Virus record (IMG/VR): IMGVR_UViG_2684622618_000023
From: a virus
Lineage: Duplodnaviria; Heunggongvirae; Uroviricota; Caudoviricetes
DNA: 7,316 nucleotides
Direction: 5' to 3' (one strand)
Part shown: piece by piece, positions 199 through 6,447 of the stretch
How the letters are laid out: each line of letters starts with the position of its first letter
How positions within the stretch are numbered: position 1 is the stretch's first letter
Notes under the pieces: generated by a model
The model's database searches: none
Seen by the model: the letters and a program-made list of their open reading frames with translations, nothing else
Told to the model about the DNA's origin: nothing
Made by a program: the position numbers and the translations under genes

Positions 199-645
199 TC
201 AAAAAGCAATAACTTTTTNNNNNNNNNNNNNNNNNNNNNNNNNNNNNNNNNNNNNNNNNNNNNNNNNNTAACGCTGACTCAGAACATTGAGCAGCCCGGG
301 ATAACCTGCCAGTACTTCACCAATAACCCTGTCGATTATTAACGCCTCTGAATCGGTACAATGCACCAGCCAGCTTTTTTGCTTGCCGTTGATCATATCC
401 CGCAAAAAAGCCTCAAGTTTAGGTTTGTCCAGACCTGCTTTTTTCATCCTCCGGAGCGCCTCGTTAATTGCCGTTTTTGTCAGCTTTTTAGAGGTCAGCA
501 ACTGGTTGAACATATTTCCCGTCTTACCGCCGCCAATATACGACCAGCGCCCCCACATACGTAGTTTCCCCTGAATCCAGACACTTTCCAGCGTGGTGAG
601 ACGAAGGTGCTCTCCGCTTTTTCCTGTGTTCGTTGGGTAAATCAT
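199..645 (-). CDS. Putative lambdoid late-gene antiterminator (Q-like) protein; 3' end uncertain because the frame runs through the N-run
   Basis: ATG at 645-643 overlaps the TGA stop of the upstream YbcO-like gene (ATGA), with AAAGGA about 10 nt upstream. About 125 codons of clean, protein-like sequence (MIYPTNTGKSGEHLRL...GYPGLLNVLSQR) before the N-run. The Q assignment is mainly positional (last gene before terminator and tRNA, after nin genes). The 40 codons upstream of this ATG in the supplied 199..765 ORF are Arg-rich, lie inside the neighbouring gene and are unlikely to be translated. The stop at 199-201 is only valid if the gap length is exact. Confidence 0.45.
   Translation of the reverse strand: MIYPTNTGKSGEHLRLTTLESVWIQGKLRMWGRWSYIGGGKTGNMFNQLLTSKKLTKTAINEALRRMKKAGLDKPKLEAFLRDMINGKQKSWLVHCTDSEALIIDRVIGEVLAGYPGLLNVLSQRXXXXXXXXXXXXXXXXXXKVIAF
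219..268. other. Run of 50 N (assembly gap or masked bases) inside the 3' part of the Q-like gene
   Basis: Literal n characters at 219-268. Confidence 0.97.
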
Positions 646-932
646 AAATAACCGTCCTTTCTCCAGATCTCTTGTGTGCGAAAAACACCTTCTGCATGCA
701 TCAGGCGCAATTCTTCTTTGGTGTAATCGCTGGTTTTTACTCTCCCGTCGATTAAATCGTGGCATGAGTTACAGGCAATCGCTGCCTGCATATCGTGTGG
801 CTTTATCGCTGTTCCGCACGTTCCCGCCAGCCTGTAATGCGCCAGCACAGAGGTTTCGGGATTGTGATTGCAGTAGCCAGGGATTCTGATCTGGCATATC
901 TGGCCTTTAGCCGCTTTACGTAAATTCACCAT
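642..932 (-). CDS. ybcO: YbcO-like (DUF1364-type) Cys-rich phage nin-region protein, putative nuclease
   Basis: 96-aa ORF MVNLRKAAKGQICQIRIPGYCNHNPETSVLAHYRLAGTCGT...ACNSCHD..., which matches in length and pattern my recollection of E. coli DLP12 YbcO (RKAARG..C.VRIPG.CN.NPETSVLAH.RL.G.CGT..KP.D..A.IAC..CHD). Start ATG 932-930 shares one base with the TAA of the upstream gene. Confidence 0.7.
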   Translation of the reverse strand: MVNLRKAAKGQICQIRIPGYCNHNPETSVLAHYRLAGTCGTAIKPHDMQAAIACNSCHDLIDGRVKTSDYTKEELRLMHAEGVFRTQEIWRKDGYL

Positions 933-1531
933 TACGCAAACTCCAGTAGTTGTGCGGCCACATTTTCAACTTCCTCCTGAGAGGAGAATTTACGGAACAG
1001 AATCCAGTTCCACAGCACATTCAGTACAGATTTATAAACCTGCTGAAACTCGACTTCGTCCATATTCGCAAAAGCGATGGATTTTGCCCGACGCCCACGG
1101 CTACCGTCCGGATAAATATGCTCGGTGTAAAATCCGGCCTGAATGGTTACCCACTCGCGGAAAGCCTCAAACGACTTTAGCAACGCCGTATCCCGGGTTC
1201 TACGAGTCGCAACGGTGTTAAGGTATTGCTCTGCGGCATCACTCAGGGCTGGCGTGTGTTCCCGACCAACTGATTCGCACAGGTAATCAACGAAACCAGA
1301 CAGCAGTTCTCGTTCGCGAGGCGTGATCGCCCCACCGACCGGAGTCCAGTAATCGAATCCCAGTTGCAGGAGTTTGAAAAAACGCTTGTGGAATGCGTAG
1401 TTACGCACACGCTTAAAATCTGCGTGTATCCACTCACCTATTTTGATTTGATGCAGAAAATCGCAACTCTCCGGCGTCGCCGGGAGAAGTAAACCAGAAG
1501 AAGTTTGTTTGACCAGTTGTATATGCGCCAT
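932..1531 (-). CDS. Lambdoid nin-region protein, resembles DUF1367-type phage proteins
   Basis: 199-aa ORF starting at ATG 1531-1529 with GAGAG about 9 nt upstream; stop TAA 934-932. Sequence (MAHIQLVKQTSSGLLLPATPES...EFQQVYKSVLNVLWNWILFRKFSSQEEVENVAAQLLEFA) matches what I recall of DUF1367 proteins found next to ybcO-like genes in lambdoid prophages; family name from memory, unverified. Confidence 0.65.
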   Translation of the reverse strand: MAHIQLVKQTSSGLLLPATPESCDFLHQIKIGEWIHADFKRVRNYAFHKRFFKLLQLGFDYWTPVGGAITPRERELLSGFVDYLCESVGREHTPALSDAAEQYLNTVATRRTRDTALLKSFEAFREWVTIQAGFYTEHIYPDGSRGRRAKSIAFANMDEVEFQQVYKSVLNVLWNWILFRKFSSQEEVENVAAQLLEFA

Positions 1532-1950
1532 TTCTCAATCTCTCGATGGCGCAGTGCAGCAGATGCCAGTTGTTCAAGCTAGCACGCAAATTGTAAACCA
1601 GAATGCCAGGAAAAAACAAAACCCGCCGAAGCTGGTTGTGTGCGGTTGCGTTGAAGTCTCCTAGCCAAAGAGTAGCGGTGACCACTCCCCGCCGATAATC
1701 TTAGTTGTTTAATTTCGTAAGCTAACTAGGCTAAAAGCTCTCTGTTGTCTGCCTGTTGTACAATTAACAAAATGAACAACGAACTAGATATACCAACGCC
1801 AGAATGGTGCAACAAATCCCAAACAACACAGCAATGCAACAATAACATATGTTATTTTCCTCTCACGGGATTCAGTCCTGAATTCTCATAAAGCTAATCT
1901 TTTTTTAAAAACATACTGTTAGATCACATGCACTTTCTTTCTTAACATCG

Positions 1951-1978
1951 TTGACTTCGCATGCGAAGCGTTTAAAAT
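1951..1978 (+). promoter_or_regulatory. Candidate sigma70 promoter for the GHKL operon
   Basis: TTGACT at 1951-1956, 16-nt spacer, TAAAAT at 1973-1978; predicted start near 1985, about 45 nt upstream of ATG 2031; AT-rich upstream region. Pattern match only. Confidence 0.4.
1955..1968. promoter_or_regulatory. Perfect 14-bp palindrome CTTCGCATGCGAAG overlapping the -35/spacer of the candidate GHKL promoter (possible operator)
   Basis: cttcgcatgcgaag at 1955-1968 is identical to its reverse complement. The palindrome itself is certain; a regulatory role is inferred from its position. Confidence 0.5.
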
Positions 1979-2030
1979 CAACAATTTGCACTTAAGGTAT
2001 TTATTTTCCCAAACACATAGAGAGTAAATT

Positions 2031-3422
2031 ATGACTGAGAACACGACTCCAACAGCAGACTTTAGTCCTAGTAAAAGATTTTTTGTAAGTATGCTAACTC
2101 GAGATATCGACTTAAACGATGCCATACTTGATCTGCTTGATAACTGCGTCGATGGGGCTTTACGTACAATAAAAGACACAAAAAAAACTTCAAAACCATA
2201 TGAAGGATTTTATGCGAAACTTACGATTAATAAAGATGTCTTTATTATAGAAGACAATTGCGGAGGTATCCCTAAAAGCTTCCGAGAATATGCTTTTAAA
2301 ATGGGACGACCCCATCAAAAAGAAGAAGAAAATGAAGGCACCGTTGGCGTCTATGGTATTGGTATGAAAAGAGCCATTTTTAAAATGGGTAGAGATTGCT
2401 CAATACAATCGAATAATCCCGATGGCGCATTCACTGTAGATATAACACCTGATTGGATCGATGGTGATGGTTGGAAAATACCGATGCACGAGAGTGACTA
2501 TGATAACAAAAATCCAACAGGCACAACTATAGAGATAAAAAAACTCCATTCTAATGTGGCACAAAAATTTAATGAGAGCACATATCTTACTGATCTCTTT
2601 TTACAGATAAAACACTCATTGTCATTTATTATTCAAAAAGGATTTAAAATAGAATTAAATGGAGTTGTTGTTGAACATAATCCGATTAACATCATAACTG
2701 ATCATTCTAAAATAGAACCATACATATATAAAGCTAAAATAGACGATGTTGATATCGATTTAGTTGTTGGCTTCTATAAAAATTTAGAAGATGACAATGA
2801 TGATGTTTTAGAAAAAAGGAGTTCTGATGATGCTGGATGGACTGTCATTTGCAATGACCGCGTTGTTCTATATTGTGATAAGACACATCTCACAGGTTGG
2901 GGCTTTGCTAATGTACCAAGGTTTCATACCCAATTTATAGCAATTTCTGGGGTTGTTCGCTTTACCAGTAAAAACCCAGAAAAATTACCAATAACAACAA
3001 CGAAACGAGGTGTCGATCTTAGTTCTACATTGTACAATGATGTACGAAATAAAATGATTGAAGGGATGATGCATTTTATTCGATTCACCAATCAGTGGAA
3101 AGGTGAGCATCTTGAAGAAGGGAAAAAATTACTTAAGTCAGCTCAGTCACATGAAGCTCAATCTTTATTTGAAATTACCCCACAATCAACTCCAGAAGAT
3201 AAAAAAAATAACTGGTCCAACCCTAATAGAAACAAAAATGAGTGGCGATATACACCTAAGCTGCCTACCCCAGTAAAAAAAAGCTCTACTGTACGAATAA
3301 TCTTCACCAGAGAGAAAGAAGATGTTAAAATTTTATCTAAATATTTCTTTGGACATGAAGATGCTAGCGCTTCTGATGTGGGGATGCAATGCTTTGATAC
3401 GGTGATTGAAGAGGTGAAGTGA
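2031..3422 (+). CDS. GHKL-superfamily (Bergerat-fold, MORC/MutL-like HATPase_c) ATPase, 463 aa
   Basis: ATG 2031 with AGAGAG upstream. N-terminal motifs in the canonical order: N-box DLLDNCVDGA (nt about 2130-2159), G1 box IEDNCGG (D at 2253), G2 box GVYGIGMKRA (MORC-like GxYGxGxK), motif IV PTGTTIEI. The remaining ~260 aa are of unassigned function (possibly an S5-like transducer); no HNH, PD-(D/E)xK or PLD motif was evident by eye. Confidence 0.85.
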   Translation: MTENTTPTADFSPSKRFFVSMLTRDIDLNDAILDLLDNCVDGALRTIKDTKKTSKPYEGFYAKLTINKDVFIIEDNCGGIPKSFREYAFKMGRPHQKEEENEGTVGVYGIGMKRAIFKMGRDCSIQSNNPDGAFTVDITPDWIDGDGWKIPMHESDYDNKNPTGTTIEIKKLHSNVAQKFNESTYLTDLFLQIKHSLSFIIQKGFKIELNGVVVEHNPINIITDHSKIEPYIYKAKIDDVDIDLVVGFYKNLEDDNDDVLEKRSSDDAGWTVICNDRVVLYCDKTHLTGWGFANVPRFHTQFIAISGVVRFTSKNPEKLPITTTKRGVDLSSTLYNDVRNKMIEGMMHFIRFTNQWKGEHLEEGKKLLKSAQSHEAQSLFEITPQSTPEDKKNNWSNPNRNKNEWRYTPKLPTPVKKSSTVRIIFTREKEDVKILSKYFFGHEDASASDVGMQCFDTVIEEVK

Positions 3423-4411
3423 TGTCTGGACAATACATTCCCTATCACTTAAGGCATAATAAGTCTATTGATAGAGAGATTTTTCTCGAAAGCCTAAACC
3501 TCTTAAGCAAAAGACTAAATATTCAAGAATATACATATATAGGTTTTGGTGGTCCGATGCTTGAAGATTTTAGAATCATGCATAATCGTATCGCTCTTTC
3601 TGATATGATTTCTCTCGAAGAACAAGAGTCTACTCACATCAGACAAAAATATAATTTGCCTTATAATTGTATTGATTGTAAGCTAATATCAGCTCATGAC
3701 TTTATTCTTGATTATAGTTTTTCTAAACCATCAATAACATGGTTAGACTATGCCTCCCCGAAAAAAATACAAACGGATCTAGATGATATACACTTACTAA
3801 GTACTAAAGTAAGCTCTTTTGATATTTTGAAGGTCACCTTCCCCATAAATCCTAGTTCTTATTACCAACGTAGAGTTGGAGAAAGTTTAGATATTTTTAA
3901 AGAAGCTTTTATTAATTCATTAAAATCATTGCTTGGGAAAAAGTATCTTGATTTTAATCTTCAGATATCAAATGCAGATCTTTCAGATCGTAAGATTAAA
4001 GCTCTTTTAATACGAATTATTACAAACGCTTTTAGATCAGCAATAGAACGTGGTCTTTCAGGACGTAAGGATAAGATTCAGTATTACCCATTATCCTTAA
4101 ATCAATATAATGATGGCAGTCATACCATGTTGACAATATCAGGTTTTTTCTCCTCAGAACAAGAATATATAGAGTTATCTAAGGCATGCGACCTTTCTAA
4201 CTGGCAATTTTATTCAACAAATTGGGAAGACGTGCAAGAAATAGCAATACCAACACTAACAATTAAAGAAAAGATAAATTTAGATAGTAAACTGCCTGAT
4301 AAAGAAGCATATCAGGCAGCCGCTGAAGAGTTCTCTTTAAACGAAAATGAACGGGATAACTATTATAAATACTATAGGTTATACCCTAACTTCCAAAGAA
4401 TTATGGTTTAA
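3422..4411 (+). CDS. Hypothetical protein (~329 aa), co-operonic partner of the GHKL ATPase; no recognisable family
   Basis: ATG 3422-3424 shares its A with the TGA stop (3420-3422) of the GHKL gene; GAGG at 3411-3414 gives 7-nt spacing. The supplied ORF begins 3 nt earlier at GTG 3419, which has poorer spacing. Ends TAA 4409-4411. Same AT-rich composition and codon usage as the GHKL gene. No catalytic motif could be assigned with confidence; weak D-x-K candidates such as IDCK are not persuasive. Confidence 0.8.
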   Translation: MSGQYIPYHLRHNKSIDREIFLESLNLLSKRLNIQEYTYIGFGGPMLEDFRIMHNRIALSDMISLEEQESTHIRQKYNLPYNCIDCKLISAHDFILDYSFSKPSITWLDYASPKKIQTDLDDIHLLSTKVSSFDILKVTFPINPSSYYQRRVGESLDIFKEAFINSLKSLLGKKYLDFNLQISNADLSDRKIKALLIRIITNAFRSAIERGLSGRKDKIQYYPLSLNQYNDGSHTMLTISGFFSSEQEYIELSKACDLSNWQFYSTNWEDVQEIAIPTLTIKEKINLDSKLPDKEAYQAAAEEFSLNENERDNYYKYYRLYPNFQRIMV

Positions 4412-5530
4412 ATATTCGGGCTGTACTCTTTTATTTAATAAATTGTACAGCCCCTTTAATATATATTCAGCAACTATTGGTGACACGCTATTTCCTATTT
4501 GTCTGAAACTATGCCATTTAGTTACATGAAAGCGAAACCAATCAGGGAAGCCTTGTAATCTAGCAGCTTCTCTTGGTGTAATCACTCTTGGATGATAAGG
4601 GTGGATCGGCCTGACGGCTTGAAAGCTTCCTTTATCTCTAGCGGTTCCCGCCCTTAAAGTCGGGCAAAAACCATTTGGATCTAATCTTGTAGATCTTGAA
4701 ATTTTATCAGTTTCCCCAAAAGATAAGGAAGCATAACGCTCTTGGACGATTTTGCTATGTAATGTTCCGGTACATCCAGATATGATATTATTTTTTAACT
4801 TAGCGATCGATTCTGTATCACCAACATTCCGAGGGATCTGCCCCCATAATTTTTCATAAAATCCCCCTTTTCGATCTTTTTTAATTGTTCGCCAACTCTC
4901 AGAGTCTGATTGCCAATTGGCATCGATAATATCTGGTAATCCATACAAAGCATCTTTTACAGTAACCGGATCAATCATTTTAGGCATAAATACTTCATCT
5001 GAAATATCAAGCTTCAATGATTTTTTTACACCGATAAAAAAATATCTAGTTCGAATAGTTGGAGCACCATAATCAGATGCTTTTACCTTGATGGGATCAA
5101 GAATATCATAATCACCGCTAACCAAATTAAATGCTTTATTTCTAATGCCAGAATATTTCTCTTGCATAATACCTGGAACATTTTCTGCCAAAAAGAATAA
5201 TGGCTGTAATTCTGATACTAAACGGTAGAAATGCATGTAAAGCTGATTCCTGCTATCATCAGGATTCCCCTTGCCTATTGAACTAAATCCTTGGCACGGA
5301 GGACCGCCAATAATACCATCTATGGGCATATCGTTTTTAAAAAAACCCTTAATTATTTCTGCATTTAGTAAAGAAACATCTTCTTGGACGTGCAAACTTC
5401 TTGGAAAATTAATTGCGTGAGTATTAATAGCATGTTGATCAATTTCAACTGCCATTTTAACATCAAATCCAGCACGTGCAGCACCAAGACTTAGACCTCC
5501 AACGCCAGAAAACAAATCTATTACATTCAT
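4379..5530 (-). CDS. DNA (cytosine-5)-methyltransferase, Dcm/M.HhaI-type, 383 aa
   Basis: Canonical C5-MTase motifs in order: motif I DLFSGVGG at the N-terminus (AdoMet binding), motif IV GGPPCQGFS (catalytic Cys codon at 5294-5296), motif VI ENVPG, an RTRYF region (motif VIII-like), and C-terminal GNSVSP (motif X). Start ATG 5530-5528; stop TAA 4381-4379. Confidence 0.9.
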   Translation of the reverse strand: MNVIDLFSGVGGLSLGAARAGFDVKMAVEIDQHAINTHAINFPRSLHVQEDVSLLNAEIIKGFFKNDMPIDGIIGGPPCQGFSSIGKGNPDDSRNQLYMHFYRLVSELQPLFFLAENVPGIMQEKYSGIRNKAFNLVSGDYDILDPIKVKASDYGAPTIRTRYFFIGVKKSLKLDISDEVFMPKMIDPVTVKDALYGLPDIIDANWQSDSESWRTIKKDRKGGFYEKLWGQIPRNVGDTESIAKLKNNIISGCTGTLHSKIVQERYASLSFGETDKISRSTRLDPNGFCPTLRAGTARDKGSFQAVRPIHPYHPRVITPREAARLQGFPDWFRFHVTKWHSFRQIGNSVSPIVAEYILKGLYNLLNKRVQPEYLNHNSLEVRV

Positions 5531-5562
5531 ATAGTTGCAACGTCTCTTATTAGTTTCTATGT

Positions 5563-5571
5563 ATTATAACA
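5563..5571 (-). promoter_or_regulatory. Candidate extended -10 promoter (TGtTATAAT) for the methyltransferase gene
   Basis: Minus strand reads TGTTATAAT (plus 5563-5571). It lies about 33 nt upstream of ATG 5530 with TAAGAGA between as a weak ribosome-binding site. No good -35, which is acceptable for an extended -10. Pattern match only. Confidence 0.4.
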
Positions 5572-5792
5572 CAACTGTTCTTGATGTTTTAACCCCATAA
5601 GATAACCTCATAAAGGCTATCCCTTGAAAATACCGGATCGCATAAATTTAATCTTTCAAAACTACTTGTCTATTAATCGAGCAATTTAAGGTTGTTTTAG
5701 TCATGTCGATACCGACATAGTTAACTAAACCCATTTCATCGTCCAACAAATGGGGGTAATACACTTTGATTTATAGTCGGGTGGGTTTTTCT

Positions 5793-5828
5793 CTATCTGC
5801 CTTTGGTGTTCATGCCCAAGGCAGATAG
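5793..5828. repeat. Inverted repeat, 11-bp arms (CTATCTGCCTT / AAGGCAGATAG) around a 14-nt spacer, in the non-coding region upstream of the MTase
   Basis: ctatctgcctt at 5793-5803 and aaggcagatag at 5818-5828 are exact reverse complements. No adjacent U-run on either strand, so not a classical intrinsic terminator. Confidence 0.6.
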
Positions 5829-5961
5829 CCTCAAGCACCCGCAGCAATTCTACTTAACTATCCTTTTCCCGCAAATCGTTTTTATCCCCAGCGGCAAATC
5901 GAATACACAACCAGCGCCACCGCCATCGCAATTCCTACCGTTGTGAATGCTTCAGGCCAGG

Positions 5962-6447
5962 TCATCGTGAAACATCCTCCACGCTTATAAGTCCGCTTCG
6001 CTCCAGGTAGTCCATCACTTTATCCGGCAATTTGCAGCCCGGTTTCGCTTTCTTCAGTTGACTAACCAATTGTTTAACCAGCATTGTCAATTCGCGAACT
6101 TGTTTCCCGGGCTCCCCTTTGCCCTGAAGCAGGGCAGCGCGGCAAGCGTTCCATCCCTCAGCATATGTTTCAGTTACACCATCGAGATGGCATGTAAGCA
6201 AATCCATTTCTTCCGGCACTACGGGCGCTGGAAAAACGGCATAGGGTGGCGTCCATTTTGGCGCTTTATCTCCAGCCGAACGCTGCTACCAGTCATCCGG
6301 TTTGTATTCATAAAAATCACCAACTGGCTCTGCTTCCAGCGATGCCAGCGCAATCCGTGCCAGTTCCATTTGTTCACCACGGGTAAGCCCGTTTTCAACC
6401 GGATTTTTAATGAACAATTCAATACGTTCTTTGGTAATAGTGGTCAT
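5962..6447 (-). pseudogene. Phage hypothetical gene with a single in-frame TAG (6288-6286); an intact reading would be about 161 aa. Alternatively two adjacent small ORFs
   Basis: Strong start: AAGGAG 6 nt upstream of ATG 6447-6445, giving MTTITKERIELFIKNPVENGLTRGEQMELARIALASLEAEPVGDFYEYKPDDW, then TAG. The same frame continues protein-like (QRSAGDKAPKW...EEMDLLTCHLDG...SGLISVEDVSR) to TGA at 5962. The downstream part has no convincing ribosome-binding site of its own (GTG 6219 or ATG 6207). Confidence 0.4.

Follow-up and report, generated by a model that had tools for sequence, protein, structure and literature searches.

A methyltransferase-fold protein translationally coupled to a prokaryotic MORC ATPase in a phage-borne cassette

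Organization of the locus

The window, meaning the whole stretch of 7,316 nucleotides that was analysed, carries a cassette of three genes, in which the target open reading frame (ORF) lies between an ATPase gene on the same strand and a convergent DNA methyltransferase gene. The genes, their junctions and the promoter-like sites around them are as follows.

1951..1978, plus strand: promoter-like site TTGACT-16 nt-TAAAAT, with 52 nt between its end and the MORC ATG (weak evidence)
2031..3422, plus strand: MORC-type GHKL+S5 ATPase of 463 aa, the partner gene
3411..3424, plus strand: coupling junction, read directly, with a GAGG Shine-Dalgarno at 3411-3414 and a TGATG stop/start overlap at 3420-3424
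3422..4411, plus strand: target ORF of family PF20553, 329 aa plus stop, with a class I SAM-methyltransferase fold
4379..4411, no strand assigned: antisense overlap of 33 nt between the 3' end of the target ORF and the C5 methylase gene, from ORF coordinates
4379..5530, minus strand: C5 cytosine DNA methyltransferase, convergent with the target (PF00145, E 2.6e-61)
5563..5592, minus strand: promoter-like site TTAAAA-18 nt-TG-TATAAT, upstream of the methylase start (weak evidence)

In total, promoter-like sites were no more numerous in the region than in shuffled sequence.

The target lies in an open frame at 3419..4411 of the plus strand, with ATG at 3422-3424 and TAA at 4409-4411 when the sequence is read directly. 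From this ATG, which is also the choice of RefSeq, the product has 329 amino acids, and its homologues start with MSGG. An earlier reading made from the sequence alone (hereafter the sequence-only reading) had described a 330-aa ORF at 3422-4411. The ORF is real; a length of 330 aa would be reached from an in-frame GTG at 3419. Two further statements of that reading, the coupling to the GHKL gene and the antisense overlap with the methylase gene, were borne out. The stop codon of the GHKL gene, TGA at 3420-3422, shares letters with the target ATG, and the overlap at the 3' end has the same length of 33 nt in K. aerogenes and E. asburiae. The target gene is under strong purifying selection, with a dN/dS of 0.046 against the Klebsiella aerogenes orthologue (89% amino acid identity, dS 1.46).

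The gene upstream of the target encodes a prokaryotic MORC ATPase. This protein has GHKL motifs I-IV, an S5 domain with the conserved lysine and the MORC signature GhXhhpXXRhl, and in structure comparison it comes closest to MORC3, SMCHD1 and MORC2. The convergent C5 methylase is essentially the sequence of PDB 3G7U (3g7u_A, E 1.3e-254), for which our literature search found no paper; it also matches the DrmMII models of PADLOC. By Pfam and fold comparison, no restriction nuclease was recognisable among the three genes of the window, which weighs against classical restriction.

Family, fold and conserved residues of the target protein

The target protein belongs over its full length to the Pfam family PF20553 (Methyltransf_35, "putative O-methyltransferase"), with an E-value of 2e-89 and a score of 300.4 bits against a cut-off of 27. 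The match spans residues 2-329 of 330 and profile positions 1-308 of 309, and the family was present in all of 57 homologues. A second match is phrog_19983 (E 1.7e-154), and the RefSeq entry for the protein, WP_000016656.1, carries the name 'O-methyltransferase'. The earlier statement that it has no recognisable family was therefore overstated, the protein being already known to Pfam and RefSeq. Our literature search found no paper describing the PF20553 family or the MORC-PF20553 pair, and the pair is not described in the WASA Vibrio, HEF_HK, NLP-defence, Pf-phage, Pectobacteriaceae Tn-seq and jumbo-phage papers. Neither the target nor the MORC ATPase had a match in NCBIfam, and PADLOC-DB v2.0.0 returned 0 families for either of them, whether the proteins of E. 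coli, Myxococcota or Microvirga were used. When PDB sequences were searched by profile, the matches were at chance level only.

The AlphaFold (AF2) model of the target (pLDDT 88.4) has strands b1-b5 in order followed by a b6/b7 hairpin. It shows the features of the class I fold: a sheet of seven strands with helices, in which b6 and b7 form an antiparallel hairpin, a glycine-rich motif I after strand 1 and an acidic residue where strand 2 ends. A fold search with the model returned class I SAM-methyltransferases as the only neighbours, the best of them being the rRNA/tRNA methyltransferases Rv2966c/RsmD-like, Trm1, RlmI/RlmO and TlyA. We concluded that the target encodes a conserved class I SAM-methyltransferase-fold protein of PF20553.

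No nuclease family in Pfam, NCBIfam or PADLOC matched the target. For PD-(D/E)xK, HNH, PLD/HKD and GIY-YIG in particular, there was neither a family match nor a nuclease among the fold neighbours, in agreement with the sequence-only reading, which had seen no HNH, PLD or GIY-YIG signature. The same reading had named the ORF, if the module restricts DNA, as the likeliest seat of a nuclease or other effector activity, which in its strong form would mean a novel nuclease cutting unmethylated DNA. The ORF does take the slot of nucleases in other MORC/paraMORC operons, as described in passages of PMC2292703, and several residues with acidic, basic or His side chains are invariant (H9, R11, K14, D49, D109, D231 and E283). 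A nuclease of this kind seems to us highly improbable.

Residue conservation was counted in an alignment of 83 sequences from many phyla. The following elements were located on the plus strand of the window.

3443..3475: N-terminal motif Y8-H9-L10-R11-x-N13-K14-x-x-x-R18 (family conservation)
3536..3571: strand 1 and motif I, Y39-I-G41-F-G43-G44-P-x-L-E48-D49-F50, the glycine-rich SAM loop
3617..3619: E66, the acidic residue closing strand 2 (residues 61-66)
3740..3751: W107-L-D109-Y110 at the end of strand 4, the motif IV position (sequence conservation)
3851..4075: helical insert of 75 residues (144-218) that separates strand 5 from strand 6 and is the family's hypervariable part
4106..4114: Y229-x-D231 in the strand 6/7 hairpin, a putative substrate-pocket element (conservation)

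In the N-terminal motif, Y8, H9, L10, R11, K14 and R18 are kept in 83 of 83 sequences. Residues 1-10 of the model have a pLDDT below 50, and Y8-L10 fall inside this low-confidence segment. The motif might serve as a cofactor lid or as a contact to nucleic acid or to MORC. Motif I directly follows the model strand 38-42 and varies little (position 41 has G in 76 sequences and S in 7, position 43 has G in 80 and A in 3, position 44 has G in 73 and S in 9, and D49 is kept in 82 of 83). Position 66 is E in 82 sequences and D in one. In class I methyltransferases the acidic motif II position binds the SAM ribose, and E66 would make this contact by analogy with the established motif. The protein is thus predicted to bind SAM. 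In the hairpin, Y229 is kept in 82 of 83 sequences and D231 in all 83.

At the motif IV position W107 and D109 are invariant (83/83) and are followed by Y (67 sequences) or F (16) as residue 110, giving a family motif W107-[LF]-D109-[YF]-[TAV] that is neither (D/N/S)PP(Y/F) nor Pro-Cys. Several enzyme classes were considered and rejected. For an exocyclic-amino methyltransferase (N6-A, N4-C or N2-G), motif IV lacks (D/N/S)-P-P-(Y/F/W), with no Pro-Pro at all, and Pfam gave no N6_N4_Mtase or MethyltransfD12 match for the target. For a C5-cytosine methyltransferase, the target has neither a PF00145 match nor a Cys conserved at strand 4, C83 being kept in only 46 of 83 sequences. For a ribose 2'-O-methyltransferase of the RrmJ/FtsJ type, position 137 is K in 62 sequences and R in 21, and the fourth residue would be Asp. 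In comparisons of the family profile by hhalign, the probability of a relation to E. coli RlmE was 0.5%, and no relation to E. coli RsmD was found.

These last results bear on the possibility that the protein is an abortive-infection toxin, an rRNA/tRNA methyltransferase (for example of ribose 2'-O or of a base) that a MORC sensor unleashes on infection, shutting down translation. The Pfam and RefSeq label 'O-methyltransferase' and the rRNA/tRNA methyltransferases among the structural neighbours point this way, and K14...D109...K/R137...D231 loosely recalls a K-D-K-E tetrad. However, a strict tetrad is disfavoured because position 137 varies from K to R, and the RsmD-like and K-D-K-E ideas draw on fold and motif position only, because hhalign shows no relation. 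Moreover, the genes conserved around it code for DNA enzymes (C5 methylase, Vsr, HNH, DISARM), and MORC ATPases likewise work on DNA. We therefore consider an RNA-directed toxin improbable.

The helical insert is the most variable part of the protein, with a median pairwise identity of 18% against 37% in the core. It may be a specificity element; a comparison of its variation with that of the methylase is confounded by shared descent. Homologue lengths of only 211-381 aa throughout the best 150 representatives imply that there are no fusions to large extra domains among them.

Linkage and genomic setting

We surveyed 86 non-redundant loci from many phyla. In 84 of them, the gene immediately before the PF20553 gene, in the same orientation, encodes a GHKL/MORC protein. 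Among these 84 pairs, stop/start overlaps were found in 69 (60 ATGA, 6 of 1 nt and 3 of 8 nt), and the gap was at most 11 nt in 83. A C5 methylase was within 3.5 kb in 72 of the 86 loci, in varying orientation (33 upstream on the same strand, 30 convergent). As in a restriction-modification (R-M) system, a DNA methyltransferase is thus linked to a non-methylase component, in the window as the convergent neighbour. These counts support the earlier view that the ORF is part of the unit. We also looked for the two outcomes named in advance as speaking against that view, a metabolic family and a lack of conservation beside the ATPase; neither overturns it. Being the constant partner of the ATPase, the PF20553 protein is therefore the best candidate for its catalytic or reader subunit.

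The C-terminal identity of the PF20553 protein tracks MORC identity (rho 0.88, close pairs), and within several clades the three genes, MORC, PF20553 and C5 methylase, diverge in step. No fourth conserved gene was found: the flanks are heterogeneous, with 161 Pfam families among 145 neighbours. Vsr was present in 29 of the 86 loci, an HNH endonuclease in about 10%, and a second, longer MORC beside the methylase also in about 10%.

With Vsr in about one third of the loci, the pair might be an accessory of the methylase and no immune effector, helping to establish or police 5mC or, in a MutL-like manner, acting with Vsr to repair damage by the C5 methylase. In eukaryotes, MORCs take part in DNA-methylation pathways. 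The C5 methylases of the module form an unusually coherent family, with 57-60% identity across phyla. E. coli MutL, a GHKL ATPase, stimulates Vsr, as cited in a passage of PMC2292703. On the other side, the SAM-methyltransferase fold has no obvious repair role, and the pair is also found without a methylase nearby. Most C5 methylases, E. coli Dcm included, function without such partners. An accessory role is, in our judgement, very unlikely.

The settings are often mobile. In the window the cassette is a low-GC island in a lambdoid nin region. It lies in a lambdoid prophage in Yersinia, in a P2-like prophage between the portal and gpA genes in Cronobacter and in an integrase-flanked island in Pseudomonas, and in Ralstonia it adjoins a ScoMcrA-like gene. 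Prophages of E. coli O157:H7 and other STEC carry it, as does the Pf inovirus PfAC20, which was the only match in a protein search of GenBank phages; a DNA search of these phages gave no match. The MORC lineage with a PF20553 partner comprises thousands of sequence clusters in many phyla.

In a Microvirga plasmid and a Myxococcota MAG, the MORC-PF20553 pair lies between DrmMI and DrmA of class 1 DISARM operons. DISARM genes were within 7 kb of the pair in only 1 of the 86 genome loci, and DISARM core genes were present around the pair only in locus L063 and the Microvirga plasmid. In cyanobacteria of the Nostoc/Scytonema type, the pair lies between ndh genes with no methylase nearby.

Proposed role of the pair and comparison with known systems

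The reading that we favour, and to which we give an even chance, is that the PF20553 protein is the SAM-dependent, non-nuclease subunit of a MORC-driven arm in a methylation-based, R-M-like defence or addiction cassette. Stop/start coupling would provide the protein in stoichiometric amounts with the MORC ATPase, as its obligate partner, and the pair with the adjacent C5 methylase would form a mobile R-M-like cassette. The methylase would mark host DNA, and the pair would be an ATP- and SAM-dependent arm acting on DNA without the mark. The MORC dimer may be an ATP-driven clamp or switch, and the PF20553 protein its nucleic-acid-facing reader or catalytic subunit, with a putative pocket of D109, Y/F110, T139, Y229 and D231 beside the SAM site. 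The protein itself would not be a nuclease; any strand cleavage would be the work of host enzymes or of an optional neighbour (Vsr, HNH or DISARM DrmC). We infer that MORC and the PF20553 protein form a complex, that DNA is the substrate and that the cassette serves defence or addiction; its mobile and defence contexts indicate that it is probably defensive.

Several observations weigh against this reading. In the MORC family of the cassette, the catalytic Glu of GHKL motif I is replaced by Asp, and because of this the ATPase may be slow or switch-like. Among solved structures, the nearest in fold are methyltransferases of RNA and of small molecules (RsmD-like, Trm1) and not those of DNA. The cyanobacterial loci imply that the pair can exist without a linked methylase. 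In the loci that have them, HNH or the second MORC could be the true restriction component and the pair an accessory.

The PF20553 protein might instead be a second modification enzyme without restriction, an ATP-assisted methyltransferase of DNA or DNA ends loaded by MORC, the two marks shielding the element or host against other restriction systems or regulating prophage genes. The protein keeps its SAM-site motifs and an invariant putative catalytic pocket, Pfam and the fold search recognised no nuclease, and the cyanobacterial pair has no linked C5 methylase. Temperate phages, which carry the cassette, often carry orphan methylases. Nevertheless, motif IV fits no known DNA methyltransferase class, we know of no need of a MORC clamp for a protective methylase, and the linkage to a separate C5 methylase and Vsr and the embedding in DISARM fit self/non-self discrimination better. 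We regard a pure modification role as unlikely.

A bolder form of the defence reading is that the pair is a nuclease-free, methylation-guided immune effector, in which a MORC clamp delivers a SAM enzyme that marks, damages or silences DNA lacking 5mC. This is speculative and rather unlikely. If it is true, the pair would be a bacterial counterpart, possibly an ancestor, of the eukaryotic link between MORC and DNA-methylation silencing, and DNA modification chemistry not yet described might be involved. Restriction or silencing of unmethylated DNA by the pair without a nuclease of its own would be a new effector logic in methylation-based immunity and would offer a tractable bacterial model for MORC ATPases reading DNA methylation.

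Among methyltransferases of similar fold, the RsmD-like and Trm1 structures (PDB 3p9n, 2ift and 3axt) have 8-14% identity to the target with TM-scores below 0.5. Unlike them, the PF20553 protein has no DPPF/DPFG motif; it combines a variable insert of 75 residues with a helical domain at the C-terminus and the invariant N-terminal YHLRxNKxxxR.

BREX and Type I/III R-M systems (PglX, HsdM, Mod) also team a methyltransferase-fold protein with an ATPase, a likeness that we use as a working analogy only; to our knowledge, BREX has no nuclease. There the methyltransferase-fold subunit itself modifies DNA, with a DPPY-type motif, and reads it in an ATP-dependent complex, whereas in the cassette a separate C5 methylase modifies, motif IV is W-L-D-Y/F and there is no sequence relation.

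Class 1 DISARM (DrmD, DrmMI, DrmA, DrmB, DrmC) is likewise a methylation-based multi-gene system on mobile DNA, and two unrelated operons of this class carry the pair between DrmMI and DrmA. However, the window has no DrmA, DrmB, DrmC or DrmD, and the pair is not among the DISARM components of PADLOC.

In Shedu type I-D/paraMORC3 (VcSduA, PMC12137116), a GHKL ATPase also controls the effector in a phage-defence protein. The effector there is a fused PD-(D/E)xK nuclease (DUF4263), in contrast to the separate methyltransferase-fold protein of the cassette.

The closest precedent is the set of bacterial MORC/paraMORC R-M operons predicted by Iyer, Abhiman and Aravind in 2008 (PMC2292703). Judged from passages of that paper, the cassette shares with them the GHKL motifs, S5 domain and MORC signature of the ATPase, the C5 methylase and Vsr, and sometimes HNH or a second GHKL paralogue, and it resembles the helicase-less minority of their MORC neighbourhoods. 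In these passages the constant partners are helicases and nucleases, with no methyltransferase-fold partner, whereas in the cassette PF20553 is the constant partner and there is usually no helicase or nuclease. One large MORC lineage thus has, as its constant and translationally coupled partner, a SAM-methyltransferase-fold protein rather than a nuclease or helicase.

The coupled gene pair and its prophage island

Three genes make up the module in the window:

2031–3422 (+): ATPase gene, 463 aa
3422–4411 (+): partner gene (ATG at 3422, TAA at 4409–4411), encoding the PF20553 protein
4379–5530 (−): C5 DNA methylase gene

The partner gene is a real ORF. It encodes 329 amino acids from its ATG, and the 330 of the sequence-only reading are reached only with an in-frame GTG at 3419. 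The coupling which that reading proposed was confirmed: the TGA of the ATPase gene (3420–3422) overlaps the ATG as TGATG, with GAGG a little upstream (3411–3414). The antisense overlap of the 3′ end with the convergent methylase gene was likewise seen, over 33 nt. In comparison with Klebsiella aerogenes orthologues, dN/dS was 0.046 for the partner gene, 0.041 for the ATPase gene and 0.063 for the methylase gene.

A Rac-like lambdoid prophage carries, in its nin region, a low-GC island (0.30–0.37 at about 1750–5750 versus 0.49–0.51 in the flanks), with DUF1367, DUF1364 and DUF1133 genes on one side and small prophage ORFs on the other. The island's 4.1-kb core was found in 176 of 5,426 complete E. 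coli genomes, O157:H7 and O111 strains among them, and was chromosomal in all; 173 of the 176 were at least 99% identical. Elsewhere in the window, 50 N (219–268; masked or unknown bases) break a (−) ORF at 199–765 in the DUF1133/Q-like region, leaving an X stretch in its translation.

A methyltransferase fold with a conserved cofactor site

The partner protein had been described as having no recognisable family. In a Pfam profile search it matched PF20553 (Methyltransf_35, "Putative O-methyltransferase") over its whole length (E 2e-89; 300 bits, cut-off 27). Pfam already covers it and RefSeq has a name for it (O-methyltransferase, WP_000016656.1), so it is not without a family. It also matched phrog_19983, to which no function is assigned there; NCBIfam and PADLOC, a defence-model database, gave no match, and at sequence level the family profile picked up no relative of solved structure. 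When 1.84 billion representatives were searched with the profile, relatives came in 2,122 clusters at E≤1e-3 (1,091 at E≤1e-30). Lengths of the best 150 all fell within 211–381 aa, mostly about 320–345 aa, so that a large fused domain is absent from them.

The AlphaFold2 model, built with 32 homologues as input, was confident (pLDDT 88.4, pTM 0.87). Conservation was scored over 83 PF20553 sequences from many phyla.

Elements of the AlphaFold2 model and positions at least 90% conserved (n = 83)
Strands 1–5, with alternating helices: residues 38–42, 61–66, 84–88, 104–109, 135–141
Helical insert: residues 144–212
β6/β7 hairpin: residues 220–244
Helical C-terminal region: residues 246–320
Conserved, N-terminal motif: Y8-H9-L10-R11-x-N13-K14-x-x-x-R18
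Conserved, glycine loop and surroundings: Y39, G41, G43, D49
Conserved, end of strand 2: E66
Conserved, further positions: R74, Q75, F77
Conserved, end of strand 4: W107, D109
Conserved, strand 5: T139
Conserved, hairpin: Y229, D231, M236
Conserved, further positions: I274, P277, E283, P292, P322

The protein has a SAM-methyltransferase fold with its cofactor site under selection. The glycine loop and E66 make up the classical SAM site, on which selection clearly acts. Residues 144–218 are hypervariable (median identity 18%).

Amino-methyltransferases carry (D/N/S)PP(Y/F) at motif IV and C5 enzymes carry Pro-Cys. Motif IV of the PF20553 proteins is W-L-D-Y/F, which matches neither type. With this motif IV, a second, protective DNA modification enzyme is an unlikely identity for the protein. 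A K-D-K-E-like reading (K14, D109, K137, D231) was weakened by Arg at position 137 in 21 of the 83 sequences, and profile comparison with E. coli RlmE and RsmD showed no relation; that the protein is an abortive-infection toxin directed at RNA is quite unlikely. The sequence-only reading had named this protein as the likeliest seat of a nuclease or other effector activity, should the module restrict DNA. No part of the protein resembles a nuclease, and we regard a nuclease hidden in it as highly improbable.

An obligate MORC partner and a frequent C5 methylase

Iyer et al. 2008 (PMC2292703) define a MORC-specific S5 motif, GhXhhpXXRhl. The window's ATPase has it as GWTVICNDRVV and 79 of 85 members of its family carry it; by this signature the partner ATPase is a MORC protein. 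Across the family, Asp replaces Glu as the general base of motif I, and this may make ATP turnover slow and switch-like. In the window this invariant Asp, at the position of the catalytic Glu in GHKL ATPases, lies in D34-L-L-D37-N38 (2130–2144).

We compared 86 non-redundant loci: the window, loci from exact-protein look-ups, and 80 species genomes (Cyanobacteria, Alpha-, Beta-, Gamma- and Deltaproteobacteria, Bacillota, Verrucomicrobiota, Acidobacteriota, Latescibacterota, Poribacteria, Chloroflexota, Myxococcota, Planctomycetota, Bacteroidota and others). In 84 the MORC gene immediately precedes PF20553 on its strand, bearing out that the two genes form a unit; the gap was at most 11 nt in 83 of these 84, the junctions including 60 ATGA, six one-base and three eight-base overlaps. 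The genetic partnership of PF20553 and MORC is obligate. The only two exceptions are L026 (4900–6353), with a fragmented MORC gene beside apparently intact PF20553, methylase and Vsr genes, and L088 (687–1751), with no MORC gene upstream.

A C5 methylase lay within 3.5 kb of the pair in 72 of the 86 loci (33 upstream on the same strand, 30 downstream convergent, eight downstream on the same strand, one divergent), and Vsr was present in 29. Six of the other 14 were cut by contig ends or on very short contigs. The genuine exceptions are L046, L063 and Nostoc/Scytonema-type cyanobacteria, where the pair lies between ndh genes. These cyanobacterial loci (L012, L014–L018) had no DNA methylase in fetched flanks of up to 7 kb; in L012, L014, L017 and L018 the pair stands alone beside ndhF/ndhD-like NADH dehydrogenase genes. 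The methylase and Vsr neighbours might suggest that the pair assists methylation, or repair of the Vsr type; with the cyanobacterial pairs in view, such an accessory role is very unlikely.

As a subfamily the methylases are unusually coherent (median identity 47% among loci; 57–60% to Acinetobacter, Thiobacillus and Planctomycete proteins). Within several clades divergence runs in parallel across the three genes; in a few the methylase has been swapped. The window's methylase is near-identical to PDB 3G7U (E 1.3e-254, residues 1–367), so a crystal structure of the module's methylase already exists; no paper was found in the literature citing that entry. The next-best solved relative, M.HaeIII, matched over the catalytic half only.

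No fourth gene is conserved: 145 flanking proteins matched 161 Pfam families, the commonest being integrases (four proteins) and two HNH endonuclease clusters (four and five loci). HNH_2 genes flank the module in L032, L056, L065 and L075, and HNH_5-like genes in L020, L024, L036, L061 and L074; these could supply the system with an optional nuclease or else be the methylase's classical type II partners. In L020 (5616–12709), two complete pairs converge on one C5 methylase with an HNH_5-like gene between. In about 10% of loci the methylase adjoins a second MORC paralogue, longer than the first and likewise with DxxDN in motif I; the C-terminal part of this paralogue had no Pfam match. It is about 540–610 aa in L022, L023, L024, L027, L028, L032, L034, L040 and L044, mostly directly beside the methylase. 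The MORC signature was present in nine of ten ORFs of at least 540 aa, two of the ten being the ordinary partner gene with an over-extended ORF call.

Mobile and defence contexts and known systems

On mobile elements and in defence loci the pair is linked to a C5 DNA methylase, which may or may not be accompanied by Vsr.

Contexts of the pair with its methylase
Yersinia lambdoid prophage: nin position, as in the window
P2-like Cronobacter prophage: between portal and gpA genes
K. aerogenes and Enterobacter asburiae elements
Pseudomonas island: integrase-flanked
Ralstonia locus: ScoMcrA-like gene adjoining
Filamentous Pseudomonas phage PfAC20 (PP058144.1, L092): 280–3711, ORF1–3
Microvirga terrae plasmid (NZ_CP102847.1, 88744–106737, L100): pair embedded in DISARM

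PfAC20 also has a further DNA cytosine methyltransferase gene, a short one (ORF9, 5438–6082).

In two unrelated class 1 operons of DISARM, a known methylation-based defence system, DrmMI and DrmA bracket the inserted pair: in M. terrae (HTH, C5 methylase, Vsr, DrmD, DrmMI, MORC, PF20553, DrmA, DrmB, DrmC) and in a Myxococcota MAG (L063, 239–12323; DrmMI, DrmD, MORC, PF20553, DrmA, DrmB, DrmC). Such embedding is rare (1 of 86 genome loci) but gives the pair a link to methylation-based defence.

We infer, with about an even chance of being right, that the pair provides a restriction-modification-like cassette with its ATP- and SAM-dependent arm. The PF20553 protein would face nucleic acid as a reader or catalytic subunit, and MORC would act as a clamp or switch. 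Counting against this are the lack of a recognisable nuclease, the lone cyanobacterial pairs, and the presence of HNH or a second MORC in a smaller share of the loci. Should the pair turn out to be an effector that is guided by methylation and needs no nuclease, its interest would be high.

PADLOC (2023) has no model for MORC or its PF20553 partner, and a full-text literature search found no paper on the PF20553 family. MORC/paraMORC restriction-modification neighbourhoods were predicted in 2008 (PMC2292703), and the MORC-PF20553 system belongs among them. In the passages of that paper on these neighbourhoods, however, the constant partners are helicases and nucleases, whereas here the partner is a methyltransferase-fold protein.
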